DNA of 46,553 nucleotides. Source: Escherichia phage vB_EcoS_IME542. The notes under the pieces are model-generated. The model was given only the letters and a program-made list of their open reading frames with translations. It made no database searches and had not been told where the DNA came from. The DNA is taken from the sequence record MK372342; one strand, 5' to 3'. Positions 435-42,843 of the stretch are shown piece after piece. The translations under genes and the position numbers were made by a program. Each line of letters starts with the position of its first letter. Within the stretch, counting starts at the first letter, position 1.

Positions 435-458
435 TGTGTAAAGTCTCCATTTGTAAAA

Positions 459-473
459 TAGCACTAATTGCTA
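459..473. promoter_or_regulatory. stand-alone copy of palindromic box TAGCA-CTAAT-TGCTA, just downstream of a minus-strand extended -10 (TGcTACAAT, 488..480) for the tail fiber gene
   Basis: Perfect inverted repeat read directly; same box occurs at 15 other intergenic sites. Confidence 0.5.
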
Positions 474-498
474 ATTTGGATTGTAGCATCTTTAAGGC

Positions 499-524
499 AT
501 AAAAAAACCTCCCGAAGGAGGTTA
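499..524 (-). terminator. rho-independent terminator after primase gene
   Basis: Minus strand reads AACCTCC-TTCG-GGAGGTT followed by TTTTTTT; overlaps stop codon. Confidence 0.7.
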
Positions 525-1445
525 ACTATTCAATAAATCACTCGCTTTATATATCTTCTTCCTGATACCGCTCTTGAATGAGTATTCATCATTTGGTATT
601 ACCACGTCAACGTTCCTGTCATCCGCAACGCAAAGCAATTCCCTATCAAGCTTGCATGCCACTCTCAGCTTGTAGTTTCTAAGCGCATAAGCAACCATCT
701 CCATGTTGTAGCTAGAGTGGCAAACAAGCACACAGCGTTTGCCAGTAGCAAGATGAACGCGAACACCATCAATCCAATTATCGACCAGATAAGCGTACTC
801 ATCATCTTTAAAGGTGCCAATAACAGCAATAGACTGGCGAGTATAATCTTTTGCAGCATAACTAACACCCCCTTCTTCATTGATAAACATTACATTGCAC
901 ATTTCTTCTGATATGCCGTCACTATAAGCCATAAAGCACGGCACTGCGTGTATTAGTTCGCCTGATTTTGTCCTGCCAGCATCAAAACCAAACTCGCTAT
1001 AAATACCCTCGTATATGCTGAGTGGAGTAGATTCTACTCTCTCAGTCCTTTCCATTATCTCCAGGCATCTTTCGTGATCAATCTGTGCGCCCATTTTGTA
1101 GAGCTGGGTTCTTGATGCTTGCTTGTTTGCTTTAACTATAACCTCAATTGGTGTTAAGTTCAGCCAGTCACCAAGCAAATTTACTGAATCGGCGAAGGAC
1201 GATCCAGTGCACTTCATGACCCATCCTATACCGGAGTCACTTCCGCATTTCGAACAAACTGCCGCGCCATTTCCTTTTTCACTGCCTATTTCGTCGGTAA
1301 ATCTGAATCTGTCAGTGCCAAAGCAGTATGGGCATGGTCCGTGCTTCTTACTTAGGTGTCTATCATTCCAACCAAGTTCCTTTGCATAAAATGATTTCCA
1401 CAATCCGGCCATCTTAGGTATAACTTCATTCTTATCGTAATTCAT
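522..1445 (-). CDS. DNA primase (zinc-ribbon, phage/plasmid primase type)
   Basis: N-terminal CPYCFGTDRFRF...CSKCG zinc-ribbon motif typical of P4/T7-type primase Zn-binding domains; 307 aa. Confidence 0.6.
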   Translation of the reverse strand: MNYDKNEVIPKMAGLWKSFYAKELGWNDRHLSKKHGPCPYCFGTDRFRFTDEIGSEKGNGAAVCSKCGSDSGIGWVMKCTGSSFADSVNLLGDWLNLTPIEVIVKANKQASRTQLYKMGAQIDHERCLEIMERTERVESTPLSIYEGIYSEFGFDAGRTKSGELIHAVPCFMAYSDGISEEMCNVMFINEEGGVSYAAKDYTRQSIAVIGTFKDDEYAYLVDNWIDGVRVHLATGKRCVLVCHSSYNMEMVAYALRNYKLRVACKLDRELLCVADDRNVDVVIPNDEYSFKSGIRKKIYKASDLLNS

Positions 1446-1921
1446 TTGCTTAACCCGTGATTTTCGTGAAAGTTGTATTTTCTCTCTGCTTCAATTCTTA
1501 CTTTATACGCCTGCTCTGGAGTATCGAAGTTCCCAAGGTGTAGATGCTTGCCGTCAACCTTGATGTGAGCCTTAAATTTTCCGTGATTTAGCTTTGCCAC
1601 TCCACAATAACCATTTGTTGATAAAACGCTAAGCTTGCAATTTCTTGAGTTACCTTGATTTGTTGTTACTCTTAGGTTTTCTATTCTGTTATCTAATTTG
1701 TTATGGTTTATATGATCAATGTAGTCGCCATTTTGAAGCTCTCCATTAAACATCTCCCACACAACTCTATGTACATAAGTCCTAAAGCCATTAACAGACA
1801 CTTTGTAATAGCCAGATGTAGATAGTGAGTTGCACTCATCGCCAACCTTAACACGTCTTGCAGTGCTAATCTTCCAATGCAATTTGCCATCTACATAGTA
1901 AAAATAATCATGCCAGTTCAT
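1442..1921 (-). CDS. HNH homing endonuclease (HNH + AP2-like C-terminus), paralog 1 of 5
   Basis: MNWHDYFYY...DHINHNKLDNRIENLRV HNH motif; shares N- and C-terminal motifs with ORFs at 20312, 32960, 42296, 43536. Confidence 0.85.
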   Translation of the reverse strand: MNWHDYFYYVDGKLHWKISTARRVKVGDECNSLSTSGYYKVSVNGFRTYVHRVVWEMFNGELQNGDYIDHINHNKLDNRIENLRVTTNQGNSRNCKLSVLSTNGYCGVAKLNHGKFKAHIKVDGKHLHLGNFDTPEQAYKVRIEAERKYNFHENHGLSK

Positions 1922-1936
1922 TTTCTTCTCTCCAAT

Positions 1937-1966
1937 AAAAAAGGATGTACCGATTATGGCACATCC
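1937..1966 (-). terminator. terminator hairpin after HTH gene whose loop carries an extended -10-like TGcCATAAT for the downstream HNH gene
   Basis: Minus strand: GGATGT-gccataatcggt-ACATCC then TTTTTTATT. Confidence 0.5.
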
Positions 1967-1972
1967 AATTCC

Positions 1973-2446
1973 TTACTCTTTAGCTTTTCGTGCTGCTTCG
2001 TTGGCGGCTTTAATTTTTCGCCACGAACGACACTCTGGCTTAGTGGCCAGTTCAGCCTCTGTAACCACGCGCAGCATGTGACGCTTTTTGCAGCGCAGAG
2101 TTAGCGGCTTGCCATTGCCGTCGAATTGCAGGTCTGGTCGGCAGAATGTGGCTCGAAAGCCTTCTCCATTTCGCTTGTAGTAGTTGTGTGAAAGCTGAGC
2201 TCCACGTGCCGATATCATTCCGCGCTTAAACCATTCTTCTACAGCCTGCGGTGTCACCTTTAGCTGCTTTGCGATATTCGCCTTTGTGCCGAAGAAATCA
2301 AGAACAATCTCCAGTCGCGCGCGTAGCCCGGCTCTTACTTCATCTTTTAAAACGTAGTAACCCGATGGTCGTTTTCGTTGTTTTTTGTCTTCAGTGCGGA
2401 CAGTTCCGTTATTGCCGTTAATGGTTCGCTTATCAACTGCATTCAT
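1973..2446 (-). CDS. HTH DNA-binding protein (candidate transcription regulator)
   Basis: 157 aa, basic; helix-turn-helix-like segment ANIAKQLKVTPQAVEEWFKRG; GAGGTGA RBS. Confidence 0.45.
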   Translation of the reverse strand: MNAVDKRTINGNNGTVRTEDKKQRKRPSGYYVLKDEVRAGLRARLEIVLDFFGTKANIAKQLKVTPQAVEEWFKRGMISARGAQLSHNYYKRNGEGFRATFCRPDLQFDGNGKPLTLRCKKRHMLRVVTEAELATKPECRSWRKIKAANEAARKAKE

Positions 2447-2459
2447 TTAATCACCTCAA

Positions 2460-2501
2460 TAGCATTTTTTGTTAAACAATAGGTTCGATAATTGCTATTA
2501 T
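2460..2501 (+). promoter_or_regulatory. promoter for helicase operon: degenerate TAGCA box plus extended -10 TGcTATTAT (2493..2501); overlaps a divergent minus-strand -10
   Basis: TAGCAttttttGTTAA then TGCTATTAT read directly; divergent intergenic region 2447..2542. Confidence 0.5.
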
Positions 2502-2542
2502 ACAGCAATGCAACGAACTAACAAACAGCTAGGATATTTAAA

Positions 2543-4773: not shown

Positions 4774-5189
4774 AAATCACAGATAAAGAAGATTACATTG
4801 AGTTTTACCCTGGTGCTGTAAAGTCATGCCCAAAGGAGGACGACGAACAGATCTTTTGCTCTGATTGGGTTAAGTATCATTACCCTCAGATTGTTTACTG
4901 GCACACAGTTAATGAAGGGATGAAATCAATTGGGTCAGCAAGGAAGGATGCAGCTAAAGGGCTCCTTAAGGGCGTATCAGACTGCTTATTCCTGATACCT
5001 GAATCACTTCGCGGAAAGTACCCTTTCGGAGCCATAGAGCTAAAGAGGGCTGGCAAAACCCAGGCTAGCACAGTCAGCGACGAACAAAAGTCTTTCCTTA
5101 AAAGCGTAAGAGAATCAGGTGGTTTCTCCGCTGTAGCCTATGGGCGCGAAGGTTTTCTTGCAGCATTCAAAGAAATGATTTCAAAATAG
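4770..5189 (+). CDS. VRR-NUC / PD-(D/E)XK-like nuclease
   Basis: D-x(n)-E-L-K arrangement (DCLFL...GAIELKRAGK); 139 aa; stop TAG lies inside the TAGCA box. Confidence 0.5.
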   Translation: MKITDKEDYIEFYPGAVKSCPKEDDEQIFCSDWVKYHYPQIVYWHTVNEGMKSIGSARKDAAKGLLKGVSDCLFLIPESLRGKYPFGAIELKRAGKTQASTVSDEQKSFLKSVRESGGFSAVAYGREGFLAAFKEMISK

Positions 5190-5247
5190 CACGAATTGCT
5201 AAAGACGAATTGGTGAGTTGGTGTATTATCAACTCATCGAAACGAAA
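5187..5247 (+). promoter_or_regulatory. boxed promoter element: TAGCAcgaatTGCTA, TGTATTAT -10, CATCGAAACGAAA leader
   Basis: Read directly; shares architecture with 14 other copies. Confidence 0.55.
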
Positions 5248-6383: not shown

Positions 6384-7514
6384 ATGGCAACTGCAAAAAT
6401 AACCAACGAACAGCTTCGTGAAGAACTAGCGAGCGGCATGACTAACAAAGCAATAGCAGAGAAGTACGGTATGAATATTCGCAATGTTGAATTGCGTCGT
6501 AGTAAGCTAGCTAAGGCTGGAGATGGGCACGGTAGAGATGTAAGCAACCTTATTCCTCAAGGTTATGCAGTTAAGGGTGTATCAAGTCTTATTGGTGCTG
6601 ATGGTGAGATTAAGCAGCAGTGGGTTAAGTCTGACATCGACAAAGAGAAGCAAGAAGAGATGATGTTTCAGGCTATTGAAGCGCTTACTGATGAATTGCC
6701 GCGCGAGAAGCCTAGAGCATTAAGAGTTGGTTTGTGGGAAGACACTTTAAGTCTTTATCCTGTTTTTGATATGCACATTGGAGCAATGGCGCACCATGCA
6801 GAATGCGGGGAGAATTACAGTACTGAAATCGCAGAGCGTGTCCTTAATGATTATTTTGATTACGCTGTTGCTAAGGCTCCTTGTTCTAAGAAAGCAGTAT
6901 TGCTGATTGGTGGCGACTTCCTCCACTCAGATGGATTGGAAGCTGTTACGCCTACTAGTCATCATGTGCTGGACCAGGATAGCCGATACCATAAGCTTGT
7001 TTACGTAGCGGTTCGAGCGACTCGGCGAGCAATTAGCCGGATGCTTGATAAGCATAAAGAAGTTGAAGTTCAGATTATTCCAGGTAACCACGACCTTTCG
7101 GGTATGATTTGGTTGCGTGCAGCAATGGCGGCATTCTATATGGATGAGCCAAGGGTAAATGTTGATGCTTCACCTGCTGCGTTGCACGTAACTCAGTTTG
7201 GCAAGACGCTTCTTGGATACTGTCATGGTCATGAGCTTCGCAAGCCAGATACTCGCTTATCAACTTTGGCACGTGACCACCGCAAGGCGTTTGGTGAATC
7301 AGAATATGTTTATACCCATTCGGGCCATTATCACCATCAAACGATTACAGAAGGTAACTTGGGTATTGATGAGTCTCATGGTCAGCTTGGTGCGAAAGAT
7401 GCTTACAGCGCAAACGGTGGTTATCGCTCTTATCGCCAGGCGTCTGTAATAATCTACAGCCCTAAATTCGGCGAGATTGGTCGATTCACTTGTCGCCCAG
7501 AAATGTTTAGCTAA
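6384..7514 (+). CDS. calcineurin-like metallophosphoesterase with N-terminal HTH-like domain
   Basis: Motifs DMHIG, GGDFLHSDG, IPGNHDL, GHYHH; N-terminal MTNKAIAEKYGMNIRNVELRRSKL. Confidence 0.6.
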   Translation: MATAKITNEQLREELASGMTNKAIAEKYGMNIRNVELRRSKLAKAGDGHGRDVSNLIPQGYAVKGVSSLIGADGEIKQQWVKSDIDKEKQEEMMFQAIEALTDELPREKPRALRVGLWEDTLSLYPVFDMHIGAMAHHAECGENYSTEIAERVLNDYFDYAVAKAPCSKKAVLLIGGDFLHSDGLEAVTPTSHHVLDQDSRYHKLVYVAVRATRRAISRMLDKHKEVEVQIIPGNHDLSGMIWLRAAMAAFYMDEPRVNVDASPAALHVTQFGKTLLGYCHGHELRKPDTRLSTLARDHRKAFGESEYVYTHSGHYHHQTITEGNLGIDESHGQLGAKDAYSANGGYRSYRQASVIIYSPKFGEIGRFTCRPEMFS

Positions 7515-7572
7515 TAGCACTTTTTGCATAACCAATGCCGTAGAAATGCGGCATAATCACCGCATCGAAACT
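7515..7572 (+). promoter_or_regulatory. boxed promoter element (TAGCActtttTGCAT, hairpin TGCCG/CGGCA, CATAAT, CATCGAAAC)
   Basis: Read directly. Confidence 0.5.
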
Positions 7573-7598
7573 AGATAAACTAAACGAGTAAACACAAA

Positions 7599-9343: not shown

Positions 9344-10927
9344 TTACCCCAGCAGTCTTGGATTGATGTAAATTTTATCACCAATCAGGCACGTATAGTT
9401 TTTTTCGTCCAGCATCGGAATCAAATGGTCCTTAATACGAGTCATGATTCCAGCTTGAGCTTCAAAAGGTTTAACCTTTCGCGCAGCTTCATACAATGAG
9501 CGAACACCAACGACACCCTTACCATTTTTTCCTTGCTTAATCAGAATATCAACCAGCTTATTCATCTCAGCATTATCACCGGCGTGACCAGCGGCACTAG
9601 CGGATGACAAATAAGTCTTGCTTAGTTCGTTAAAAATCATAACCGCCTCCTGCATTGTCTCAAGCTCAATCTCCCTGGACTTCTGGGGGCTCGACCCTGC
9701 TGGTGCGAACCAGTTACGAATAACGTGCAGCACAGAGGCGATACGAATTGCTTGCTTATCAAACTTACCTAGAGCGCCACGTAACATTGTGTGAGAGTAC
9801 TTACCACCATCACCAAGGTGCGGTTCCATTTCCTGACGCGCGCGGTTCAGGTAACACATTGAAGAGGCACTTACAGTTAGTTTCACTTCGACTTCACTCA
9901 TAATCTCATGAACGAGACGGAAGTAATCAGCCTTCAGCCCACCGTCAATAGCCTCATATGTTGAGTCACCATTCTCGTCAACAAACACGCGGTCTCCAAG
10001 GAATGACTTCTCACGCACAAGCAAGAAACGTTCTGACACACCGATACCACGCGCACCAGCATTCATGATCGCGTTGATGGTCTCATCCTGTGCGATAACA
10101 GAGATGCAGCCCATAGCGACAAAGCTCATGTTATTTTCAGCGTTCGCACGCGCAATAGAAACGTTACCAGCATCCCATGCTTTCAGCACAAGCTCGCTGT
10201 TCGTTTTCTTTGAGCCATCACCATAGGTCATGCCAAGTAGTGAGTTTACGCTCGTTGCCTCATCAGAGATTACTGCGAAGTTGCCCTGTCGGTTGTTTAT
10301 TCGCGCAAGACCTTCCGGCGTGGTGTCGGATACGGGGAAAACGATATCGCACAGCTTTTCCAGCTTCTCTTCTAAATCTTCTTTTTCCTCAAAAAGTGAA
10401 GCCATCTCTGACGGAGATTTTTCCTGCTTCATCTCTTTGGATAATGCAGATAGTTTGGCAATAATCTTTTTGCGCTCGCGCTTTCGCACTTCATTAATCC
10501 GCTCAGTCTCAGCAATCATTGGGGCAATTGAAAGCGAGTTAATTGCTGATTTACCAGTTGATGGTGGCTGGCTTGTTACGACGTAGAGCGCGGTTGGCTG
10601 CTGATTTCCGTGATACTCAACAGTAAATCGACCAAGCATGGCGGCAGAAATGCACCCCAGAAAGTGCATATAAGCTGAAGACTCAGGGAATTGAACCGAA
10701 CGAGCAATGTTAGCTGATAACTTGCCCACAACATCAATATCATTACCTAGTGAGATTACAGGGTACTTATCATTTGCAGCATCAATCTCGACCGGAGCCT
10801 TCCAGAATGATTGGGACTGTCGATAACCATTAGCATTAATAGCCACGCGAAGCGGTGGAAGGTTGTCGGTCGCAGCAATTGCCATAACCTGCTCAACAGA
10901 TAGTTTATCTTCGTTGAAATCAAACAT
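9344..10927 (-). CDS. P-loop NTPase, putative replication-associated ATPase (deviant Walker A QPPSTGKS)
   Basis: Walker A-like PPSTGKSA and Walker B-like AVISDEAT; ATG 10927 with GGAG RBS preferred over track GTG 10969; 527 aa. Confidence 0.5.
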   Translation of the reverse strand: MFDFNEDKLSVEQVMAIAATDNLPPLRVAINANGYRQSQSFWKAPVEIDAANDKYPVISLGNDIDVVGKLSANIARSVQFPESSAYMHFLGCISAAMLGRFTVEYHGNQQPTALYVVTSQPPSTGKSAINSLSIAPMIAETERINEVRKRERKKIIAKLSALSKEMKQEKSPSEMASLFEEKEDLEEKLEKLCDIVFPVSDTTPEGLARINNRQGNFAVISDEATSVNSLLGMTYGDGSKKTNSELVLKAWDAGNVSIARANAENNMSFVAMGCISVIAQDETINAIMNAGARGIGVSERFLLVREKSFLGDRVFVDENGDSTYEAIDGGLKADYFRLVHEIMSEVEVKLTVSASSMCYLNRARQEMEPHLGDGGKYSHTMLRGALGKFDKQAIRIASVLHVIRNWFAPAGSSPQKSREIELETMQEAVMIFNELSKTYLSSASAAGHAGDNAEMNKLVDILIKQGKNGKGVVGVRSLYEAARKVKPFEAQAGIMTRIKDHLIPMLDEKNYTCLIGDKIYINPRLLG

Positions 10928-10939
10928 CTTAATACTCCA

Positions 10940-11000
10940 TCTCGTTAATATGCGGGCATTATATAACACCCGCTCAGTATGTCTTTATCTTTTAGTGCTA
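10940..11000 (-). promoter_or_regulatory. boxed promoter element (degenerate box, -10 TATAAT within hairpin loop GCGGG/CCCGC)
   Basis: Minus strand reads TAGCACTAAAAGATA ... GAGCGGG-tgttatataat-GCCCGC ... AACGAGATGGAG. Confidence 0.45.
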
Positions 11001-11699: not shown

Positions 11700-11770
11700 C
11701 CTTTCGTTGTTTCGTTTCGATGGAAAGATAATACCGCATCCTTGCGATTTCGTTTTAGCAATTCGTGCTA
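11700..11770 (-). promoter_or_regulatory. boxed promoter element (perfect TAGCAcgaatTGCTA, hairpin CGCA-agga-TGCG, TATTAT, CATCGAAACGAAA)
   Basis: Read directly on minus strand. Confidence 0.55.
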
Positions 11771-11916
11771 TTTCTTGCCTTTTCTATCGCCTTGAGCATA
11801 ATCTCGTGGCTTTCCAGCAAGTCCTCACGAAACCAGTCACCACAAGGCCAGCCCTTTCCGCTATAGGCGCTGATGACCTCAAGATCGAAATAATTTATCT
11901 CAGATGGTAGTAGCAT
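11755..11916 (-). CDS. hypothetical small protein (53 aa) whose C-terminus NSTNC-stop is encoded by the palindromic box
   Basis: Hand-translated MLLPSEINYFDLEVISAYSGKGWPCGDWFREDLLESHEIMLKAIEKARNSTNC; GGAGG RBS. Confidence 0.35.
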   Translation of the reverse strand: MLLPSEINYFDLEVISAYSGKGWPCGDWFREDLLESHEIMLKAIEKARNSTNC

Positions 11917-12843: not shown

Positions 12844-12914
12844 GGTGTGTTCGTTTCGTTTCGATGAAGTAACTATACGCCATCCTTGGCATTGAGGTTT
12901 AGCAATTCGTGCTA
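12844..12914 (-). promoter_or_regulatory. boxed promoter element (perfect box, hairpin GCCA-agga-TGGC, TATAGT, CATCGAAACGAAACGAA)
   Basis: Read directly on minus strand. Confidence 0.55.
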
Positions 12915-13204
12915 TTGCGTTCGATGTATGCATTAATTTCTTCAGAAGTTTCCATTGCGGAGCGGAAAGCGCCTTTTGCGTGGCGAGCATCACGGAATGA
13001 CTGGAAGAATTTACGAGCAACGTTTGCGAACATCGCGCCAGTTATACGAGCATCACCGAAATTAGTTTCGATTGAGTTACTGATGCCATCACGGAACTCA
13101 TTCTCAGTCATGAACATTTCAGCAATTTCAGCGGTGGCGAAAAGGTCTGCCAGTGATTGCATATTTTCGTGGTCAGCTTTAGTGAAAAGGTTCATGTTAA
13201 TCAT
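12899..13204 (-). CDS. hypothetical protein; C-terminus NSTNC-stop encoded by the palindromic box
   Basis: 101 aa; GGAGA RBS; first gene of minus-strand early block. Confidence 0.5.
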   Translation of the reverse strand: MINMNLFTKADHENMQSLADLFATAEIAEMFMTENEFRDGISNSIETNFGDARITGAMFANVARKFFQSFRDARHAKGAFRSAMETSEEINAYIERNSTNC

Positions 13205-13221: not shown

Positions 13222-13285
13222 TTCTTCGTTTCGATGGAGTAATAATAGCAAATCACTCCTGATTGGTCATTAGCAAAAAGTGCTA
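13222..13285 (-). promoter_or_regulatory. boxed promoter element (perfect box TAGCActttttGCTA, hairpin AATCA/TGATT, extended -10 TGcTATTAT, CATCGAAACGAAG)
   Basis: Read directly on minus strand. Confidence 0.55.
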
Positions 13286-13305
13286 TTCGTTGGATTTATT
13301 GATTC

Positions 13306-14407: not shown

Positions 14408-14941
14408 TGGGAATGTTTGATTTCAATGATGTGAAGCTAAGTGGCGAGGAAATCGTAAGAATTGCGCAGCGTGATGGTTACTCAATTCTTCGCGTGGCAA
14501 TCAGTAATAACTGATATCGGCAAACTCAGCGCTTCTGGGGTCGCCCTGATGCATCGTCAATCTACAAAGGTAGCGAGCATGCGGTTCTTGTTAATCTAAT
14601 TAGGAAAATGGGAAGAAACGGGAAAAGGGGTGCTTGGTGTTAGGTCATTATACGAAGGCCTCAGGAAATCAAAACCAGTTGATTCACGTAATGTCAGACT
14701 AATGGCGAGGCTTCAGGAGGGACTTATCCCAGACCTAGAGAAGATGAATCTCGTCTGCATGATTGGTGATAAGATTTATGTTCACCCTGCAATCCTTGAT
14801 GAGTGTTGGGAACCTAACTTCAAAGTATACGAAGGTGAGCATCCTAGTAGACTACCATACCACTTGCGTTACAGTGAGGAGGAGGTTGAGATGGCTATGA
14901 AGTTCTATCGGAAAGCTAAATTACTCCTGACTGGGAAATAG
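14407..14941 (+). pseudogene. disrupted, internally deleted paralogue of the P-loop ATPase gene (9344..10927): N-terminal and C-terminal homology only, in-frame TGA and a frameshift
   Basis: MGMFDFNDVKLSGEEIVRIAQRDGYSILRVAISNN-stop-YRQTQRFWGRP matches ATPase N-terminus MFDFNEDKLSVEQVMAIAATDNLPPLRVAINANGYRQSQSFWKAP; GVRSLYEGLRKSKP...LVCMIGDKIYVHP matches ATPase C-terminus GVRSLYEAARKVKP...YTCLIGDKIYINP. Confidence 0.5.
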
Positions 14942-15000
14942 CACTTTTTGCCTAACGTAATAATGCCAAGGATGGCATAATCATCTCATCGAAACGAGAG
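14939..15000 (+). promoter_or_regulatory. boxed promoter element (box TAGCActtttTGCCT, hairpin GCCA-agga-TGGC, extended -10 TGgCATAAT, CATCGAAACGAGAG)
   Basis: Read directly. Confidence 0.55.
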
Positions 15001-15018: not shown

Positions 15019-15237
15019 ATGAACAAGACAATCACACTGCAATGCATTAAGACAAATAACCCAGAATTTATTAAAGTTCACAAATATTTAGCAACCCTGG
15101 TAGACGGTAAAACATGGGCAGTTAAAGGTGGCTTCCAGGATTACAAATTCCCACTTGAGCACATACCTGGCGGAAACCTTGGTTTTGTTAGTAGCTGCCG
15201 CTCAGTTAAGTTCGTTTTTGAAGTGGTAATGAAATAG
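15019..15237 (+). CDS. hypothetical protein (second ATG with AAAGGA RBS preferred)
   Basis: 72 aa; stop TAG inside next box. Confidence 0.45.
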   Translation: MNKTITLQCIKTNNPEFIKVHKYLATLVDGKTWAVKGGFQDYKFPLEHIPGGNLGFVSSCRSVKFVFEVVMK

Positions 15238-15262
15238 CACTTTTCATCCTGACTGGTATAAT
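15235..15262 (+). promoter_or_regulatory. boxed promoter element, short form (TAGCA half-box, extended -10 TGgTATAAT)
   Basis: Read directly. Confidence 0.45.
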
Positions 15263-15418: not shown

Positions 15419-15675
15419 GTAACTACGATCGAGAAATTATTGGGATTGATGGAACTGTGACAAAAGTAGATGTTTATCGTGTTCTTGATGCGTTCGGTGT
15501 ATCGGACCCGGCCACGCAGCATGCGATAAAGAAGATGCTTTGCACTGGCTTGCGTGGCCACAAGGATTACCTGACTGACCTTAATGACTCAATTGAATCA
15601 TTGCAGAAGGCTAAAGAGCTTTACGGTCAGAGAGTGATTAACGAGTCGGCCAAACCAAAACTTAATGTTAAATAG
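15415..15675 (+). CDS. hypothetical protein
   Basis: 86 aa ORF. Confidence 0.5.
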   Translation: MSNYDREIIGIDGTVTKVDVYRVLDAFGVSDPATQHAIKKMLCTGLRGHKDYLTDLNDSIESLQKAKELYGQRVINESAKPKLNVK

Positions 15676-15734
15676 CACTTTTTGTTAAAACTCCAGGGAA
15701 GGAGTTTGGCATAATAGCTTCATCGAAACGAGAG
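15673..15734 (+). promoter_or_regulatory. boxed promoter element (box, hairpin AAACTCC-agggaa-GGAGTTT, extended -10 TGgCATAAT, CATCGAAACGAGAG)
   Basis: Read directly. Confidence 0.55.
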
Positions 15735-16181: not shown

Positions 16182-16315
16182 TTTACGTTCATACGTACTA
16201 CACGGGAAAATTTAACAGCGTTAAGCACGTTAGAGTGCACGATAGCTACGAGAGCGCAAAGGCGCAATGGCTGGTTCTTGGCGGTGACATTAATTCATAT
16301 AAAATCGCTGAATAG
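16178..16315 (+). CDS. hypothetical small protein (45 aa)
   Basis: MIYVHTYYTGKFNSVKHVRVHDSYESAKAQWLVLGGDINSYKIAE; stop TAG inside box. Confidence 0.35.
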   Translation: MIYVHTYYTGKFNSVKHVRVHDSYESAKAQWLVLGGDINSYKIAE

Positions 16316-16374
16316 CACTAATTGATAAAACAGGGTTGGGGTAATTTGGTATAGTTACCCTATCAAACGAGATG
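16313..16374 (+). promoter_or_regulatory. boxed promoter element (box TAGCActaatTGATA, hairpin GGGTAA/TTACCC, extended -10 TGgTATAGT)
   Basis: Read directly. Confidence 0.5.
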
Positions 16375-17665: not shown

Positions 17666-17740
17666 GCTCTGTTAGCTTAATGGAGAAAGCCGCAGCCTTC
17701 TAAGCTGTTGATGGTGGTTCAACTCCACCACGGAGCGCCA
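17666..17740 (+). tRNA. tRNA-Arg (anticodon UCU), CCA encoded
   Basis: Hand-folded cloverleaf: acceptor GCTCTGT/ACGGAGC, D-arm GCTT-AATGGAGA-AAGC, anticodon stem GCAGC/GCTGT with loop CTTCTAA, T-arm GGTGG-TTCAACT-CCACC, discriminator G, CCA. Confidence 0.7.
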
Positions 17741-28838: not shown

Positions 28839-28844
28839 AACACA

Positions 28845-28868
28845 AACCCTCTTCGGAGGGTTTTTTAT
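28845..28868 (+). terminator. rho-independent terminator
   Basis: AACCCTC-ttcg-GAGGGTT followed by TTTTTT. Confidence 0.75.
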
Positions 28869-28872
28869 TGCA

Positions 28873-28933
28873 TAGCACTTTTTGCTAAAGCACTTATTCA
28901 GCTTTACTGTATAGTTATCTCATCGAAACGAAA
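28873..28933 (+). promoter_or_regulatory. boxed promoter element (perfect box TAGCActttttGCTA, hairpin AAAGC/GCTTT, TATAGT, CATCGAAACGAAA)
   Basis: Read directly. Confidence 0.55.
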
Positions 28934-29906: not shown

Positions 29907-32888
29907 ATGGCAACAAATGAATTAGCCGGAATCACACTAGCCGTAGACGTCTCGCAGGTAGACAGAGGTACACAGTCCCTGCGGAAGTTCAGGCAGGCAA
30001 ACCAGCAGGCCGCTTCCGGCATTAGTGAGTTCGTCAACGCCGAGCAGGTTGCAAAGAATCAAGCCAGAGACACAGCTCGCGCACTGGCTGAACGGCAATC
30101 ATCTTTGGCTAAATTGCAAACGGCTATTGACCCAACTGCGGCAAAGTTCCGTAAACTCCAGGAGGCTGCTGTAGGTCTTGATAAGGCTTTCGCGGCTGGA
30201 GTAGTTCCTGATGAGGAGTTTTTCCGCTTAGGTGAGGCGCTTGAAACGCAGAACGCAAAACTTGCTCGTTCACGTGCGGCACTAACTGAAGAGGGTAGAG
30301 CGGCGGCGCAAGCTGCAAAGGATAAGGCAAAGGCAAAGGCTGAAGCGGATAGATTCATTGCATCACTTGAGCGTCAGGCTCAGGCGGCAACATTGACGCG
30401 AGAGGAGTACCTAAAGTTACAAGCGGCCCAGCTTGGCGTAAGTTCTCAGGCGGCGCCTATTATTGACAGAATCGCCGATGCATCACGGAAGGCAAACACC
30501 CAGCTAATTGCTCAGAGCAAGGCCTTTCAACGCTCTGGCTTAAGCGCAGGTCAATACAAGGCTGCAATCTCTCAATTGCCAGCGCAGATTACAGATATTG
30601 GGACATCACTTGCTGGCGGCATTCCGATTTGGCTTATTGCAATTCAGCAAGGTGGACAAATTAAGGATGCATTTGGAGGTATTGGTAACACATTTAGTTT
30701 TGCGCTTGCTGCTTTAAACCCGTTCAACGTAGCAGTTGGGGTTCTCGGTGGCGCGCTTGTTGCTTTAGGCGTCGGTGCTGCGCAGGCTGAAAGTGAATTC
30801 AGGGCGTTAAACTCCGCCATTGCGTTCTCAAACAACTCCACAATCGCATCAATCTCGCAGGTTAGAGAGTTGGTTAGCTCTGTTTCTGATGCCACTGGTG
30901 CAACCAGAGGACTTGTGACTAGCATCGCAACAAGCCTTGTTGAGCAAGGAAACCTTACGCTAACGCAGATTGACAAGATTACTAAATCAACAGCCAGATG
31001 GGCTCAGTTGACAGGTAAGGATGCAAAGGAAATTACTGGTTACTATAACCAGATTGCGAGCGACCCAATTCAAGGACTTGCTGATTTAGACAAGAGGTTT
31101 AACTTCCTTACACAGGGGCAGTTAACAACAATTGAAAGATTGAGAGAGACTAGGGGTGAGGTTGAAGCCGTAACTGCTGCTATTGATATATTTAGCAAAT
31201 CACAAGAGGCAAACCTTAACGATATTGCAGCCCAGCTTACTCCTCTTGAATTGGCCTGGAATGACTTCAGGAAGTACATATCTGATGTATGGGATGCAAT
31301 TAGTCGCAGAACGGTTGGGGCGCTAAACCTGTTTGTTGACGTAATCGCCGGAACAATTGAGCAAATTAGGGTCTTCATCAACCAGGGTGATGTGCTGATT
31401 GGTGAATTCGTAATTAGCGCAACACAGGCACTGCAGAACATCCCCGGCCTTGATGGTGTTGGTGATGATGTTGTCAAGGGACAGCAGAAGATTATCGATG
31501 CCGCTAAGAAGCAAAACATTGAGCTAGAGAAGTCTATCAAGGAGCGCGATGCCAGAATCAGAGAAGGAGAACTTGGCTACGTTACTCGCAGAGAAAATCA
31601 GAATACCAATGAGCAGTCAGGCACGGATGAGGAGTTTGCAAAAAGGAAGAAAGCGCTTCAGGATGAACTTGATGCGATCAAGAAGAGCAGGAAAGAAGAA
31701 AATGGTAGGGTTAAAGAGCAAAGAGACCTTACAATTGGTTACGAATCTGGCGTACTTGCACTACAGGCACAACTCAAGGTGCTTCAGGAAAACAGGGATA
31801 TTGGCGCAGTAATAAGCAATGAGCGCAAGCAGTATCTTCAGGAGGTTGCAAAATTCCAGATTCTTGAGCAAAGGCAGCGTGATGGCTCAATAAAAAAAGA
31901 GCAAGCAAGACTTATTCTCGAGAAAGATAAAGTTCTGGAACTAGCAAGGCAGAAAGCTGAACTTGGCGATCAGATTGTTTTGCAGGAAAGAGCTAATAAG
32001 TTAGCTGAGGATAACAGGAAGAAGATTCTTCAGATCAACAACGAAGCAAATAACATTGGTTTTGGCGCCGGATTATCATCTCGTGAGCAGCAGAGAGCCA
32101 GAGAGATTCAGTCGCTTCAGTCCAATCAGTTAAACAAAGGTGGCTCTGTAGATGACACTGATTTTCAGGCTTTACTCGAAGCAAGGCGTAATTTCTATGC
32201 TCAAGAGGATGCGCTACGTGAAAACTGGCTTGCTGGCGTGAATCAATCCTTTGCTAACTGGGCTGAAAGCGCTACAGATGCTTTCTCAATTGCCGGAAGT
32301 TTAACCACTAAGGTATTTGAAGGCATTACTGACCAGATTACTGACCTTGTAACCACTGGAGAAACAAACTTCAGGGAGTTTACTGTAAACATACTCAAGC
32401 AGATTGCAAGAATTGCAACTCAGCTTCTTATTGTTAAGGCTATCGAGTCTAGCTTAAGTAGCTTTGGTGGTACTGGTGGCGCGATTGGGTCTATCGCATC
32501 TGCGATTGGCGGTGGCTTTGCTAGCGGCGGTTACACTGGAGACGGTGGAAAATATCAACCAGCAGGCACTGTACATAAGGGGGAGTTTGTATTCACAAAA
32601 GAAGCAACAAGCAGGATTGGTGTTAAAAACCTTTACGCATTGATGAGAGGTTACGCAAATGGCGGTGTTGTAGGCGGGCCTTCGGGCTATGCAAATGGCG
32701 GCTTGGTTTCTGGTGGTGCAGATGTTAATGTTAGCGGAATAACCGTTAACGTTAATAGTGGGATTGGAAGCGACCCGGAACAGGCCAAGGCGCTGCAAAA
32801 TGGCGTTAAGGCAATTGTAGCAGAAGAGATTGCTCAGTCTTTCCAGCAGGGCGGCAGAGCATTTGCTTATTTGAGAGGTTTCAACTAA
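29907..32888 (+). CDS. tail tape measure protein
   Basis: 993 aa, long alpha-helical Ala/Gln/Glu-rich N-terminal half, Gly-rich C-terminus; position after G/GT. Confidence 0.85.
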   Translation: MATNELAGITLAVDVSQVDRGTQSLRKFRQANQQAASGISEFVNAEQVAKNQARDTARALAERQSSLAKLQTAIDPTAAKFRKLQEAAVGLDKAFAAGVVPDEEFFRLGEALETQNAKLARSRAALTEEGRAAAQAAKDKAKAKAEADRFIASLERQAQAATLTREEYLKLQAAQLGVSSQAAPIIDRIADASRKANTQLIAQSKAFQRSGLSAGQYKAAISQLPAQITDIGTSLAGGIPIWLIAIQQGGQIKDAFGGIGNTFSFALAALNPFNVAVGVLGGALVALGVGAAQAESEFRALNSAIAFSNNSTIASISQVRELVSSVSDATGATRGLVTSIATSLVEQGNLTLTQIDKITKSTARWAQLTGKDAKEITGYYNQIASDPIQGLADLDKRFNFLTQGQLTTIERLRETRGEVEAVTAAIDIFSKSQEANLNDIAAQLTPLELAWNDFRKYISDVWDAISRRTVGALNLFVDVIAGTIEQIRVFINQGDVLIGEFVISATQALQNIPGLDGVGDDVVKGQQKIIDAAKKQNIELEKSIKERDARIREGELGYVTRRENQNTNEQSGTDEEFAKRKKALQDELDAIKKSRKEENGRVKEQRDLTIGYESGVLALQAQLKVLQENRDIGAVISNERKQYLQEVAKFQILEQRQRDGSIKKEQARLILEKDKVLELARQKAELGDQIVLQERANKLAEDNRKKILQINNEANNIGFGAGLSSREQQRAREIQSLQSNQLNKGGSVDDTDFQALLEARRNFYAQEDALRENWLAGVNQSFANWAESATDAFSIAGSLTTKVFEGITDQITDLVTTGETNFREFTVNILKQIARIATQLLIVKAIESSLSSFGGTGGAIGSIASAIGGGFASGGYTGDGGKYQPAGTVHKGEFVFTKEATSRIGVKNLYALMRGYANGGVVGGPSGYANGGLVSGGADVNVSGITVNVNSGIGSDPEQAKALQNGVKAIVAEEIAQSFQQGGRAFAYLRGFN

Positions 32889-32931
32889 TAGCACAAAATG
32901 GTAAAGCCAAAAGGATTTGGCTTGCTATAAT
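32889..32931 (+). promoter_or_regulatory. boxed promoter element in front of HNH gene (box TAGCAcaaaaTGGTA, hairpin AGCCAAA-agga-TTTGGCT, extended -10 TGcTATAAT)
   Basis: Read directly. Confidence 0.55.
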
Positions 32932-32959
32932 CAACTCATTAAAATCATAAGGAGATAAA

Positions 32960-33430
32960 ATGAACTGGAATGATATTTTTGATTATAGAAATGGCGTTCT
33001 TTATTGGAAGATAAAGCCAGCAATACAATACAATATTGGCGATGTTGCTGGTTTCTTTTGTGAAAAGAGAGGTTACATAATCGTTCAATACAAGCGTGTA
33101 AAGGTAATGGCCCATAGGGTTGTATGGGAAATGTTTAATGGAAGAATAGCTGATGACATGGAAATTGATCACATTGACCACTCTAGAAAAAACAACAACA
33201 TATCAAACATAAGACTGGTAACGAAGAGTGATAACATGAAAAACAAAAGCATGTACTCATCAAATAAAACTGGCGTTGTCGTGGTTAGTTACTGCAAAAC
33301 AAAGAAAAAATTTATATCAAAGATAGGTAAGAGAATTCTATTAACAACAAGCAATTTTGAAGAGGCTGTAAAAGCGAGAAAAAGCGCAGAGATAGCCCTT
33401 AATTATCACAAAAATCACGGGGGTAAATAA
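32960..33430 (+). CDS. HNH homing endonuclease, paralog 3 of 5 (between tape measure and gpM-like gene)
   Basis: MNWNDIFDYRNGVLYWKIK..., EIDHIDHSRKNNNISNIRLVT, C-terminal NYHKNHGGK; AT-rich codon usage. Confidence 0.85.
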   Translation: MNWNDIFDYRNGVLYWKIKPAIQYNIGDVAGFFCEKRGYIIVQYKRVKVMAHRVVWEMFNGRIADDMEIDHIDHSRKNNNISNIRLVTKSDNMKNKSMYSSNKTGVVVVSYCKTKKKFISKIGKRILLTTSNFEEAVKARKSAEIALNYHKNHGGK

Positions 33431-35908: not shown

Positions 35909-35933
35909 TACCCGCCTAGTGCGGGTTTTTTAT
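35909..35933 (+). terminator. rho-independent terminator-like hairpin
   Basis: CCCGC-ctagt-GCGGG followed by TTTTTT. Confidence 0.6.
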
Positions 35934-35943
35934 TTAGTGTAGA

Positions 35944-38900
35944 ATGGCACAAATGATCAAAACAAACATGAGGCTTTGTGATATGGCTGAAGAAATTAAG
36001 ATTTATGGTGCCAAAGGCGGTAGCCAGAAGCAGCATCAACCAGTGGAGCAGGAAGATAACCTAATTTCACTTAACAAGGTTAAGGTATTACTTGCGGTTG
36101 CTGACGGAGAGGTGGACCCTAACTTCTCATTGAAGGATTTATACCTTGCTGATGTTCCAGTGCAAAATCAGAATGGCACCTACAACTATGAAGGTGTTCG
36201 CGCCGAGTTTCGCGCTGGTACGCAATATCAGGACTATATCGCTGGGCTTGACGGTGCGAACTCAGAGATTCAGGCTTCCAGGGAAATTACGAACGATACC
36301 CCGTACATCATTGCGGTTAATAACAGCCAGCTTTCGGCGATTCGAGTTAAACTCTTTTGGCCTCGACTGATCAAACAAGAAAGTAACGGAGACCTGAATG
36401 GCACAACTTGCGAGTATGCAATTGACTTGTCAGTTAATGGTGGGGCATATCAGCAATATACTCGCGGAGTTGCAAACGGGAAAACAACAACTGGTTACGA
36501 CCGTAGCATACGTGTAAACCTTCCCGCTGAATTTGATAGTGCGCTGGTTCGCATCCGTAAGATTACAGCAGACTCAACAAGTAGCACGCTGGTTAATGGA
36601 ATGCAGATTACAACCTATCAGGAAGTAATTGACGCTAAATTCCGCTATCCGCTTACTGCTCTGGTTTACGTTGAGTTCGGCTCTGACCTGTTCCCTAACG
36701 GAATCCCAACAATCTCTATCAAGAAGCGATGGAAGTTAATTCAGGTCCCAACAAACTATAACCCTGAAAGCAGAACTTACAGCGGCACATGGAATGGTTT
36801 ATTTAAAATGGCGTGGTCAAATAACCCAGCATGGGTTCTTTATGACTTAGTGACAAACCGCAGATATGGACTTGACCAGCGAGAGTTAGGTGTAGAGATT
36901 GATAAGTGGGGCTTGTATGAAGCTGCACAATTCTGCGACCAGATGGTTCCAGATGGTAAAGGTGGAATGGAACCTCGTTATCTTTGCGATATGGTTGTAC
37001 AGAATAAGGTTGAGGCATACACACTAATTCGTGATGTCTGCTCAATATTCCGCGGCCTGACATTCTATGATGGCGAAAAGATTGGCATCGTAGTTGATAA
37101 GCCTCGCAATCCATCTTACATCTTCACGAACGATAACGTTGTAAATGGATTATTCAGCCGCACATTCGCTAGCGAAAAGAGTCTTTACACTACTGCGAAC
37201 GTACAGTTTGATGATGTGGAGAATAACTATCAGCAAGATGTAGAGCCGGTATTTGAATTAGAGGCAACCCGCCGCTTTGGATTTAACCCTGTTGATTTAA
37301 CTGCTATTGGCTGCACTCGCAGAAGTGAAGCAAACAGGCGCGGAAGATGGCTTCTAAAAACCAACCTGAGAAGCGAAACTATCAGCTTCACAACTGGGTT
37401 AGAAGGTATGATTCCGATGATTGGCGAGGTTATTGCGGTTAATGACGCAGCATGGTCGAGCAACTATCAGTTAAACCTTTCTGGTCGAATCGAATCTGTG
37501 CAAGGATTGCAGGTTTTTACTCCGTTTAAAGTTGATGCAGCACCTGGTGACAGAATCCTGCTTAACAAACCGGACGGTAGCCCAGAGGCTAGAACTATCG
37601 CAAGCGTATCTGAAGATGGTAGAACTATTAACCTGAACACGGCGTTCAGTTTTGTAGCTCAGCAAGATACTGTTTTCGCAATCGACAAGGACAATCTGGC
37701 ACTTCAGCAATATGTTGTGACTGGTATTCAAAAAGCAGATACTGATGGTCAGGACTCGTTCCAGTACACAATTACTGCTGTTGAGTACGACCCGAACAAA
37801 TATGACGAGATTGACTACGGAGTTAACATTATAGACCGCCCTACTTCAATTGTAGAACCTGACAGATTGTCGCCACCTGAGAACTTAACAGTATCAAGCT
37901 ACAGCAAGGTTGTTCAGGGTTTATCGGTTGAGACGATGGTAATAGGGTGGGACAAAGCGCCATACGCTAAAACATACAATGTTCAGTGGAGGAAAGAGAA
38001 TGGTAACTGGATTAACGTACCCAGAACAGCTAGCACAGAAGTTGATATTGAAGGTATTTACGCAGGAATCTATGACGTTAGGGTTCGCAGCGTATCAGAT
38101 ACTGAAAACGTCTCTGCCTGGTCTGATATTGTAACTGTATCGCTAACTGGCAAGATTGGTCGCCCATCTGCGCCAACCGTTATTACTGCTTCAACTGATG
38201 AGGTGTTTGGCATTCGTGTTAAATGGGGATTCCCTGAAGGCTCAGGCGACACAGCTTACACTGAACTTCAGCAAGTTGCTGATAACGGTGACGGTACTTA
38301 CAACCCTGATAACGCGAGCTTGCTGACGCTGCTTCCTTATCCAGCCTATGAATACTGGCACACGCCAATTCAGCCAGGCAAGGTTATCTGGTATCGTGCA
38401 AGATTAATTGACAGAATCGGCAACACCTCTGACTGGTCTGATTTCGCTAGAGGTATGAGCACTGACGATGCCAACATTATCAACGAATATATCAAAGTTG
38501 ACATTGAAGGTTCGGAAGGATTCAAATATCTCGAACAGAATGCGATTCAAAAGAATCAGGACATTCAGAATCAGGCTGAGGCAATCATCGAGAACGCATT
38601 AGCAAATGACACTGATGTTCGCCGCATGACAAAGGAGAATGGTGCCAGAAAGGCTGAATACGTTCAGGCGGTGAATCTTATTGCTGATGAAACTCAGGCG
38701 CGCGTAGAGGCTCTCACGCAGCTTAAAGCGCAGATTGATGGTGAGGTTGTAGCTTCCATAACTGAGGTTCAGACGGCACTAGCCACCGAAACAGAAGCAA
38801 GGACCACTGCCGATACTGCTTTGAGAGCTCAGCTTGGAGATACTCAGGCTGCACTTAATGAAAAACTTGACTCATGGGTTGATGCGGAATCCGCTGGCGC

Positions 38901-40609: not shown

Positions 40610-40675
40610 TGTGTTTCGTTTCGATGGAGTAACTATAGCAAAGGATGATTACGGAGTCTTTAGCTATTCGTGCTA
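40610..40675 (-). promoter_or_regulatory. boxed promoter element (box TAGCAcgaatAGCTA, extended -10 TGcTATAGT, CATCGAAACGAAACAC)
   Basis: Read directly on minus strand. Confidence 0.55.
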
Positions 40676-40752
40676 TTGTATACGCGTAACCGATGTAACT
40701 CGGTGTATACAATCTCGTCCGCGGAAAATGGTATACGCGCTGTTACGCCTAG

Positions 40753-42309: not shown

Positions 42310-42787
42310 AATTTTTGATTACGATGGGGTTAATTTGATATGGAAGATAATGAGCGGAACTAGAGGTTGCATTGGTAAAGTTGCTGGAAATGTAAGTAAG
42401 ACTAACGGTTATGTAAGGTTGAGGTACGATGGCAGGGAGCACAAGGTTCACAGAATTATATTGGATATCGTAAATGGTAAAATACCTAGTGGTTTATTTG
42501 TTGATCACATAAATCACATTAGAAATGATAACAGGATTGAGAACTTGCGATTGGTGAATAGGCAAGGAAATGCCATGAATCAGTCATTGAGAAAAACAAA
42601 CAAAACCGGAGTTCTGGGTGTTAGTTGGGTGCCAAGGCTATCAAAATATGTAGCAAGAATGGGTGTGGATGGTTACGAGTATCACATTGGGTGTTTTGAC
42701 TCAATCGAGGAAGCCGCTAGAGCAAGAAAAAGCGAAGAGGTTAAGTTGGGATTTCATAGAAATCACGGAAATAGCACAAATTGCTAA
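42296..42787 (+). CDS. HNH homing endonuclease, paralog 4 of 5
   Basis: MNWSEIFDYDGVNLIWKIM..., VDHINHIRNDNRIENLRLVN, C-terminal GFHRNHGN; overlaps end of exonuclease gene by 14 nt. Confidence 0.85.
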   Translation: MNWSEIFDYDGVNLIWKIMSGTRGCIGKVAGNVSKTNGYVRLRYDGREHKVHRIILDIVNGKIPSGLFVDHINHIRNDNRIENLRLVNRQGNAMNQSLRKTNKTGVLGVSWVPRLSKYVARMGVDGYEYHIGCFDSIEEAARARKSEEVKLGFHRNHGNSTNC

Positions 42788-42843
42788 AACAACAATGGAT
42801 AGCTCAGGTATAGTTATCCCATCAAAAACGAACGAGGTTAAAG

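Follow-up and report, generated by a model that had tools for sequence, protein, structure and literature searches.

A terminator hairpin and a putative extended -10 promoter element interleaved after the HTH regulator gene of Escherichia phage vB_EcoS_IME542

The DNA considered here is the 46,553-nucleotide stretch of sequence record MK372342 (Escherichia phage vB_EcoS_IME542), hereafter the window. On its minus strand, two hairpins surround a hexamer of the -10 type. The first one (site 1) is located between the stop codon of a helix-turn-helix (HTH) regulator gene and the Shine-Dalgarno (SD) sequence and ATG of an HNH endonuclease gene, thus upstream of the HNH start codon, as proposed by an earlier sequence-only reading of the window. 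The second one (site 2) is located upstream of a DUF3987/DNA helicase gene, called an ATPase gene in that reading. Coordinates are given in Table 1. The subject of this analysis is the relation between hairpin and hexamer: both hexamers (CATAAT at site 1, TATAAT at site 2) are probably real -10 elements, as judged from their register and conservation, and they appear to belong to a repeated promoter module.

The site 1 stem has 9 bp, among them 5 G-C pairs and 1 G.U pair, and closes a loop of 6 nt (terminator scan). Its folding energy is -17.1 kcal/mol with a z score of -4.3, and 0 of 200 shuffled sequences were as stable (RNAfold). The U-tract TTTTTTATT follows, then the SD sequence GGAGAG (1933-1928) and the ATG of the HNH gene at 1921. 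The features of an intrinsic terminator are present, i.e., a stable G+C-containing stem of at least 5 bp, a loop of 3-8 nt and a U-rich tract directly 3'. The homologous EC3a record annotates the element as a terminator and so does the record of T1 (RefSeq equivalent at 35930-35971). The minus-strand terminator that had been noticed after the HTH gene is thus confirmed: by its sequence features and its conservation, site 1 is a canonical intrinsic terminator. It is comparable to the intrinsic terminators of E. coli and its phages in its 9-bp G+C-containing stem, its 6-nt loop and its U-tract directly after a stop codon. It differs from the usual ones in that the loop is constrained in sequence (A at position 2 and T at position 6 of the hexamer, hereafter A2 and T6) and the whole element lies within a putative promoter. 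Neither hairpin matches any RNA family in Rfam, where the sole hit was a tRNA.

The loop of site 1 contains just ATAAT(C). All of TGc and the leading C of CATAAT belong to the 5' arm, the hexamer straddling the closing pair and the loop. The claim that TGcCATAAT as a whole lies in the loop is thus correct for ATAAT(C) and not for the other four bases, and the idea of a -10 element sequestered by pairing is to be abandoned since the hexamer sits in the loop instead. CATAAT has A2 and T6, and TG is found at -15/-14, as in sigma70 extended -10 elements. The predicted start is a1946, i.e., the A of the conserved CATC register, and the transcript predicted from this base is unstructured (-3.1 kcal/mol).

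The window contains at least 16 copies of a module of about 60 nt with the composition AATAGCAC-N3-TTGcTAAA (the box), 22-23 nt, (TGn)TAnnnT, N5 and CATCGAAACGA. Sixteen window sequences (15 plus site 1) align without gaps, and both site 1 and site 2 are in register; at site 1, GCAGCACgaaAAGCTAA falls in the box column, CATAAT in the -10 column and CATC in the start column. The heptamer ATAGCAC is found 15 times in the window for 6.1 expected. A2 and T6 are present in 15 of the 16 module hexamers and TGn in 8 of them, and the modules have no -35 element at 17 bp. All copies aim at a downstream gene, the copy at 458, antisense to its neighbours, being the exception. With its half-sites TAGCA-N5-TGCTA the box forms an imperfect dyad, centred near -42 if the A of CATCG is taken as +1, and its left half-site is far better conserved than the right one. 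This box module, with its conserved start region rich in C and A, looks like the main promoter class of the phage, as far as the alignment tells.

Two readings of the box as a classical promoter element were rejected. TTGCTA is not a normal -35 element, the spacer being 22-23 nt in every copy. Promoters of the sigma54 type have the form TGGCAC-N5-TTGCW, with GG and GC elements exactly 10 nt apart; a sigma54-like reading of GCAC...TTGC fails because AG stands in place of GG and the spacing is 2 nt too short in every copy.

A hairpin between the box and +1 is found in 12 of the 16 modules (z below -1.8 for 12; mean z -2.25). Its arms flank the hexamer at 5186, 16312, 42771, 13286, 2459, site 1 and site 2. 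At 7514, 14938, 15672, 32888, 12915 and 11771 the hairpin is localized in the spacer just upstream of the hexamer, and the tails of these spacer hairpins are mostly poor in U in the window. An AGGA (SD-like) tetraloop is common to the spacer hairpins 14963-14978 and 32899-32918 (plus strand) and 12892-12877 and 11748-11733 (minus strand), with similar arms (ATGCCA/TGGCAT, ATCGCA/TGCGGT, AAGCCAAA/TTTGGCTT), which suggests either duplication of the module or a function shared by these loops.

At site 2, the hairpin folds at -13.1 kcal/mol (z -3.1), and its stem consists of 5 G-C pairs together with wobble and A-U pairs. The bases 3' of it, ATATTAACGAG, form no U-tract, and the terminator scan does not list it; site 2 is thus not a terminator, because no U-tract follows the hairpin. 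Of the similar terminator hairpin that had been reported in front of the ATPase gene, a real hairpin around TATAAT remains, deprived of any terminator character, the U-tract being missing here and in all orthologs whose hairpin encloses the hexamer. The in-register bases are TTA, so that the TGn motif is also missing. The direct-repeat register reads ATAGCACtaaAAGATAAAG, with a perfect left half and AAG in place of TTG, and the distance from the box to the helicase start codon is 74 nt (11001 to 10927) in sense orientation. The right half of the box is degenerate in this phage (AAGATA; 10980-10991, minus strand), its relatives having TTGATA, TTGCTA or TTGTTA; this copy may have drifted toward factor independence. 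The transcript predicted from a10951 is unstructured (0 kcal/mol).

The comparison with relatives was based, for site 1, on 71 IMG/VR loci that contain a gene for a relative of the HTH protein, the sequence being read after the HTH stop codon. RNAfold values were used for the T1-type orthologs, whose bulged stems the ungapped hairpin finder missed. At least 10 unrelated stem sequences occupy this position, e.g., GGATGTGCC, AGGTTGTGCC, GCGTATCTGG, ATCGCGTGTGTGG, CGCCTACCGGG and AGCCGATGATT, as well as GCCTGGCATGATG, ATCGCGCGCGTGG, ACGGGCGCGGTTA, GCCTGGCTCGG and GGCACTGTGC. All of these fold strongly (-16 to -25 kcal/mol), and a T-run and then an SD sequence lie 3' of the stem. The T-run is lacking in just two stem families, those of L010 and L011, loci where another gene lies downstream and where the structures are weaker (-7.7 to -8.5 kcal/mol). 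The median folding energy of the site 1 ortholog hairpins is -18.1 kcal/mol and their z score -5.2. Pairing reaches 95% within own arms vs. 39% between arms of different lineages. The loop hexamers are CATAAT, TATCAT, TAGATT, TATATT, TAAAGT, TATGAT, TATTAT, CATTAT, TAACAT and TATAGT. Among 33 unique versions, A2 and T6 are kept in 32, at 21-23 nt from the box, and TGn in 20. The site 1 hexamer, in register with a box, near-invariant in A2 and T6 over unrelated stems and enriched in TGn, thus behaves as the -10 element it had been taken for.

In this phage, the direct-repeat register of site 1 is degenerate (GCAGCACgaaAAGCTAAAG). Other lineages differ in how the HTH reading frame ends and keep the box at the DNA level, the left half being a perfect ATAGCAC in the T1 group (e.g., ATAGCACaatTTGACTAA). 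Site 2 orthologs have A2 and T6 in 17 of 17 cases, a median folding energy of -14.6 kcal/mol (z -4.1) and covarying arms (98% for own arms vs. 41% across lineages); no T-run was found after the hexamer-enclosing hairpin in any of them. In T1, most modules have arms of the GGGG.../...CCCC type around the hexamer, and the hexamers of three box modules lie inside annotated terminators. In AKS96, overlapping terminator and promoter annotations are found on one box module. In a second layout, present in AKS96 and in T1 (41980-42007), the hairpin occupies the spacer and the hexamer opens the U-tract; for these, it is plausible from the layout that the spacer hairpins are weak terminators with the -10 element serving as U-tract. 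On this comparative evidence, the terminator/promoter layout at the HTH junction is kept across the phage family.

These results bear on the simplest alternative, i.e., that the hairpin is a terminator or attenuator and nothing else, just cutting read-through into the primase gene, the -10-like loop being A/T-rich for no promoter function. The rpsU-dnaG-rpoD operon of E. coli, with its terminator before dnaG, offers a parallel. The canonical terminator features of site 1, the C at -12, the degenerate box and the missing -35 all agree with it, and chance would give the window about 7 hairpins with a loop of the -10 type. The count of hairpins (at least 6 bp, at least 3 G-C pairs) with a loop hexamer matching the -10 consensus in at least 5 of 6 positions is 15 in the window vs. 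7.1 +/- 2.6 in dinucleotide shuffles. The observation of a -10 element in the loop is thus, from this sequence alone, modestly beyond chance, and strong support comes from the relatives: A2 and T6 persist in all but one of the ortholog versions though the stems are wholly replaced, the hexamer is always 21-23 nt past the box, and TGn is frequent. Moreover, the same spacing from box to hexamer is found at 15 other modules, hairpin-less ones included, and the other strong terminators of the phage have G+C stems and tetraloops with no such hexamer. A pure terminator is thus decidedly unlikely.

The strand on which the hairpins act can be approached by the balance of G.T and A.C in the stems. With a symmetrical scoring, G.T exceeds A.C throughout: the ratio is 13:2 for the window family, 31:5 for the orthologs of site 1 and 12:4 for those of site 2. 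Selection for pairing thus acts on the sense strand, RNA being the simplest case. A control is given by the helicase promoter in the divergent HTH/helicase region, where no co-directional gene lies upstream: box and hexamer are present in 44 of 44 versions, and no hairpin signal is found among them (median folding energy -3.9 kcal/mol, z -0.4). The same promoter class thus occurs in this region with no conserved hairpin, which argues that the promoter mechanism does not include the hairpin. Likewise, the window modules 28872 (with a separate terminator upstream) and 40676 (in a divergent region) are both hairpin-less. The asymmetry, the divergent control and these two modules place the putative function of the hairpin on the read-through RNA and not on the promoter.

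The same data weaken a second alternative, in which the structure would act at the DNA level: an extruded hairpin or cruciform would show a single-stranded -10 element to sigma70 and replace the -35, or the palindrome would be a repressor operator. The virion RNA polymerase (RNAP) of phage N4 uses hairpin promoters with a stem of 5-7 bp, a fixed 3-nt loop and a dedicated polymerase, and Frpo of the F plasmid is a single-strand promoter requiring single-stranded DNA. The N4 precedent, the hexamer-flanking arms of many modules, both in the window and in T1, and the missing -35 elements agree with such a role. On the contrary, the hairpin is missing from the same promoter type where upstream transcription is absent and lies wholly upstream of the hexamer in several modules; TGn, which is recognised as duplex DNA, is located in the 5' arm. 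The prevalence of G.T over A.C speaks against a two-strand cruciform or duplex operator, and the arms, being unrelated between lineages, form no shared operator; a palindromic operator or cruciform is disfavoured on these two grounds. The inverted repeat around promoter bases is common to the N4 and Frpo promoters and to the present modules; unlike in the former, stems and loops vary in the latter and the promoter class can do without the hairpin. An RNAP gene was not found among the profiled open reading frames (ORFs) of the window. An N4-like or single-strand promoter was rejected on account of the lack of a polymerase among these ORFs, the variable stems and the dispensable hairpin, and action at the DNA level as a whole is very unlikely.

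The box itself has been described. According to a 2024 paper on phage TLS (PMC11447400), 18 intergenic copies of aaATAGCACnnnTTGnTAAAA, a 21-nt direct repeat shared by the T1-like phages TLS, T1, Rtp and Rogue1, lie about 76 nt upstream of start codons along the direction of transcription. The same paper mentions only three sigma70-like promoters after reannotation, reports neither an RNAP gene nor a sigma gene in TLS, and poses the role of the repeat as an open question, with a stoperator, an enhancer or a UP-like element as suggestions; the link between repeat and -10 hexamer is not made in the sections consulted. The module of the window is comparable to the repeat as presented there in its consensus, its orientation to genes and its distance to start codons (74-75 vs. 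about 76 nt). It differs from the stand-alone repeat of this account (PMC11447400) in being the upstream part of a module of about 60 nt with (TGn)TAnnnT at a fixed distance and CATCGAAACGA, and the site 1 copy, unlike the intergenic repeats described in it, is degenerate and located within a coding sequence, 75 nt from the HNH start codon (1996 to 1921) in sense orientation. A literature search for the module words ATAGCAC and CATCGAAACGA gave unrelated papers only, and a search for signals lying within terminators gave nothing relevant.

If the hexamers are real -10 elements, the box could still be a repressor site ("stoperator"-like) or a UP-like element, the promoters working on the extended -10 alone. 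These are options raised in PMC11447400, half of the modules have TGn, and site 2 of the window has its own -35-like AAGACA at 16 bp. However, the modules without TGn, i.e., the other half, are also without -35, the box is not A/T-only as a UP element would be, and the rigid register of 22-23 nt with a dyad centre near -42 fits a factor in contact with RNAP. A repressor site or UP-like element is thus improbable.

A dimeric factor of the phage or of the host is inferred instead, because a dyad centred near -42 occupies the position of class II activators. Activator-dependent sigma70 promoters without -35 include the class II CRP promoters (galP1, with its site at -41.5 and an extended -10) and lambda PRM with cI; further examples are phage Mu Pm with Mor (dyad near -43.5) and the T4 middle promoters (MotA box and -10). 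The present modules share with them a -10 (often with TGn), the lack of a -35 at 17 bp, a dyad-like element near -42 and a rigid spacing. They differ in that the box resembles no CRP, cI, Mor or MotA site, the left half-site is better conserved and the starts are predicted ones. The neighbouring HTH protein is a candidate for the box-binding factor, by its position.

The best explanation of site 1 is, with fair likelihood, that two independent signals are interleaved in the same DNA, the constrained bases of the promoter occupying the free loop of the terminator. RNAP coming from the canonical sigma70 promoter of the HTH gene would transcribe the inverted repeat (1966-1943) and the T-tract, and the RNA hairpin with its U-tract would end the HTH transcript. 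The same DNA would be a box-class promoter, with a degenerate upstream box, no -35 at 17 bp and TGcCATAAT exactly 22 nt past the box. The stem arms would use its unconstrained parts, i.e., the spacer (-20 to -12) and the discriminator and +1 region (-5 to +4). A transcript starting at a1946 would have no 5' arm and, being unstructured, would escape the terminator and pass the T-tract. It would serve the next gene, i.e., primase in Rtp and other relatives, HNH and primase here. With the box overlapping the stop codon and the SD sequence within about 25 nt of +1, a hairpin present on read-through RNA only would have almost no other place. At site 2, the hairpin most likely acts on the read-through RNA of the upstream gene, as a 3'-end/stability element or a weak attenuator.

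Several points weigh against this explanation. (i) The box of site 1 is a degenerate one (GCAGCAC/AAGCTA), and position -12 of CATAAT is a C. (ii) The 22 nt from TTGCTA exclude a normal -35 and the proposed activator is a candidate only. (iii) A U-tract is missing from most module hairpins, whose general function is thus not that of a terminator; in this, site 2 and most sister hairpins are unlike intrinsic terminators. (iv) A terminator overlapping a promoter gives the latter no shield from occlusion by incoming polymerases. (v) The lineages are phylogenetically related, so that counts of unique versions are not counts of independent events. (vi) The searched literature contains no transcript 5' or 3' ends for Drexlerviridae, nor any paper pairing this family with transcription start sites; what is said here on starts, on the activity of promoters and on the efficiency of termination is deduced from the DNA.

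The sequence-only reading had gone further and proposed that termination and initiation are coupled, RNAP freed at the T-tract being handed straight to the embedded promoter, so that upstream transcription drives initiation. The release point (+5 to +13) does fall within the footprint of the embedded promoter, and the design with terminator and -10 in the loop is conserved family-wide at the HTH junction. Recycling and reinitiation of RNAP after intrinsic termination are documented in vitro: the enzyme can remain on DNA and reinitiate at nearby promoters (PMC6978380, PMC10372574, PMC11364550). The geometry in which recycling could matter, i.e., a terminator within a few bases of a co-directional promoter, is common to these studies and to site 1; the elements are separated in the former, and overlap and are known from the sequence alone in the latter. 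Against coupling, the same promoter class is found at positions without terminator or hairpin, most of the hairpins with a -10 in the loop have no U-tract, hence no release of RNAP is expected there, and geometric compaction accounts for the overlap by itself. Coupling is thus left unsupported and is unlikely as an explanation. That the overlap is a functional device and not compaction, either by recycling of RNAP onto the embedded promoter or by a hairpin presenting a single-stranded -10 to sigma70, is more improbable still. If recycling were true, the polymerase for a transcription unit would be physically loaded by the stop signal of the unit before it; in either version, the device would be a Drexlerviridae-wide, host-polymerase counterpart of N4-type hairpin promoters or of RNAP recycling in vitro.

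Contamination of laboratories and of industrial cultures by T1-like phages is common, and these phages are considered for phage therapy; their transcription programme is essentially unmapped. For the 21-nt repeat, a concrete and testable answer is now at hand: it appears to form the upstream part of promoters that have no -35, but an extended -10 at fixed distance and a conserved start region, and promoters of this box class appear routinely interleaved with RNA hairpins ending or capping the upstream message. Known kinds of element are combined here, i.e., an overlapping terminator/promoter and an activator-type -35-less promoter, which provides a testable function for a repeat regarded as unexplained. 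The model predicts start and stop sites to the single nucleotide and offers a compact natural terminator-plus-promoter part. A -35-less class also explains why standard promoter finders fail on such genomes.

Table 1. Features of the window considered in the text (modules are listed by strand; - and + denote minus and plus strand).
Feature	Coordinates	Strand	Remarks
Site 1 hairpin	1943..1966	-	GGATGTGCC (1966-1958), loop ATAATC (1957-1952), GGTACATCC (1951-1943)
Site 1 U-tract TTTTTTATT	1934..1942	-	+5 to +13 of the predicted transcript of the embedded promoter
Site 1 extended -10, TGcCATAAT	1953..1961 (hexamer 1958-1953)	-	in -10 column of gap-free module alignment; conserved in orthologs
Site 1 degenerate box GCAGCACgaaAAGCTAA	1980..1996	-	within last HTH codons, 22 nt upstream of CATAAT
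Site 2 hairpin	10952..10973	-	GCGGGTGTT (10973-10965), loop ATAT, AATGCCCGC (10960-10952)
Site 2 -10 hexamer, TATAAT	10958..10963	-	predicted start a10951
Site 2 -35-like AAGACA	10980..10985	-	16 bp from TATAAT; only in the copy of this phage
Site 2 box ATAGCACtaaAAGATAA	10985..11001	-	first A is the final base of the upstream stop codon
HTH (Cro-like) transcriptional regulator gene	1973..2446	-	upstream transcription unit of site 1
HTH stop codon	1975-1973	-	
HTH gene promoter, TTGTTA-16-TATAAT	2497..2524	-	canonical sigma70 type; -35 present, no box
HNH endonuclease gene	1442..1921	-	between terminator/promoter module and primase gene; ATG at 1921
DNA primase gene	522..1445	-	directly served by site 1 module in Rtp and other relatives
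DUF3987/DNA helicase gene	9344..10927	-	ATG at 10927
Module	458..517	+	perfect box ATAGCACtaaTTGCTAA, defective hexamer CATAAA; antisense into primase/tail-fibre intergenic region
Module	2459..2518	+	of the helicase gene next to the divergent HTH/helicase region; hexamer TATTAT 2496-2501
Module	5186..5245	+	hairpin arms flank hexamer
Module	7514..7573	+	spacer hairpin
Module	14938..14997	+	spacer hairpin (AGGA loop) and TGGCATAAT
Module	15672..15731	+	spacer hairpin
Module	16312..16371	+	-10 in hairpin loop and 3' arm
Module	28872..28931	+	no hairpin; separate terminator 28844-28863 immediately upstream
Module	32888..32947	+	spacer hairpin; upstream of second HNH gene (32960-33430)
Module	42771..42830	+	hairpin arms flank hexamer; upstream of Erf-like gene
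Module	11712..11771	-	weak spacer hairpin, then ATTATCTTTC
Module	12856..12915	-	weak spacer hairpin (AGGA loop)
Module	13227..13286	-	-10 in hairpin loop
Module	40617..40676	-	no hairpin; divergent intergenic region

The window is that of an Rtp-like coliphage of the Drexlerviridae: a 1.2-kb query spanning site 1 finds phages of this kind (TR1, DTL, EC3a, Rtp and others) at 80-95% identity. The HNH gene is present in just 8 of the 102 matching records; elsewhere the homology ends shortly beyond the T-tract. The HNH stop codon overlaps the primase ATG (ATGA). By this distribution the HNH gene is an insertion. The hairpin belongs to the HTH/primase junction, because Rtp and ETEP102 have the same hairpin directly before the primase gene, with no HNH gene between.

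Two HNH endonuclease genes of the same PHROG are found in the window, at 1442-1921 (minus strand) and 32960-33430 (plus strand). The first one is inserted exactly past the T-tract of the HTH terminator and takes the place of the primase leader. The second one has its own box module (32888) and is located between the tape-measure ORF and downstream tail genes.

Three further modules or variants deserve mention. The -10 element of the HTH promoter (TATAAT, minus strand, 2502-2497) and that of the plus-strand helicase module (TATTAT, 2496-2501) overlap face to face; by this geometry the two promoters should exclude each other, and an early-to-middle switch could result. The module 458-517 runs into a bidirectional terminator (506-523) and could be, from its sequence, a relic, an antisense start or a binding site. 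A short variant at 15234-15262 (plus strand) consists of ATAGCAC, 16 nt and TGGTATAAT; it has no right half-site, the left half being roughly at the place of a -35.

The whole stretch looks like a complete circularly permuted genome, cut within the tail-fibre gene downstream of primase (1-470; 44510-46546, minus strand). The 678-aa ORF at its right end has no PHROG match at 1e-8. A tRNA-Arg gene (anticodon TCT) is found at 17666-17740 (plus strand).

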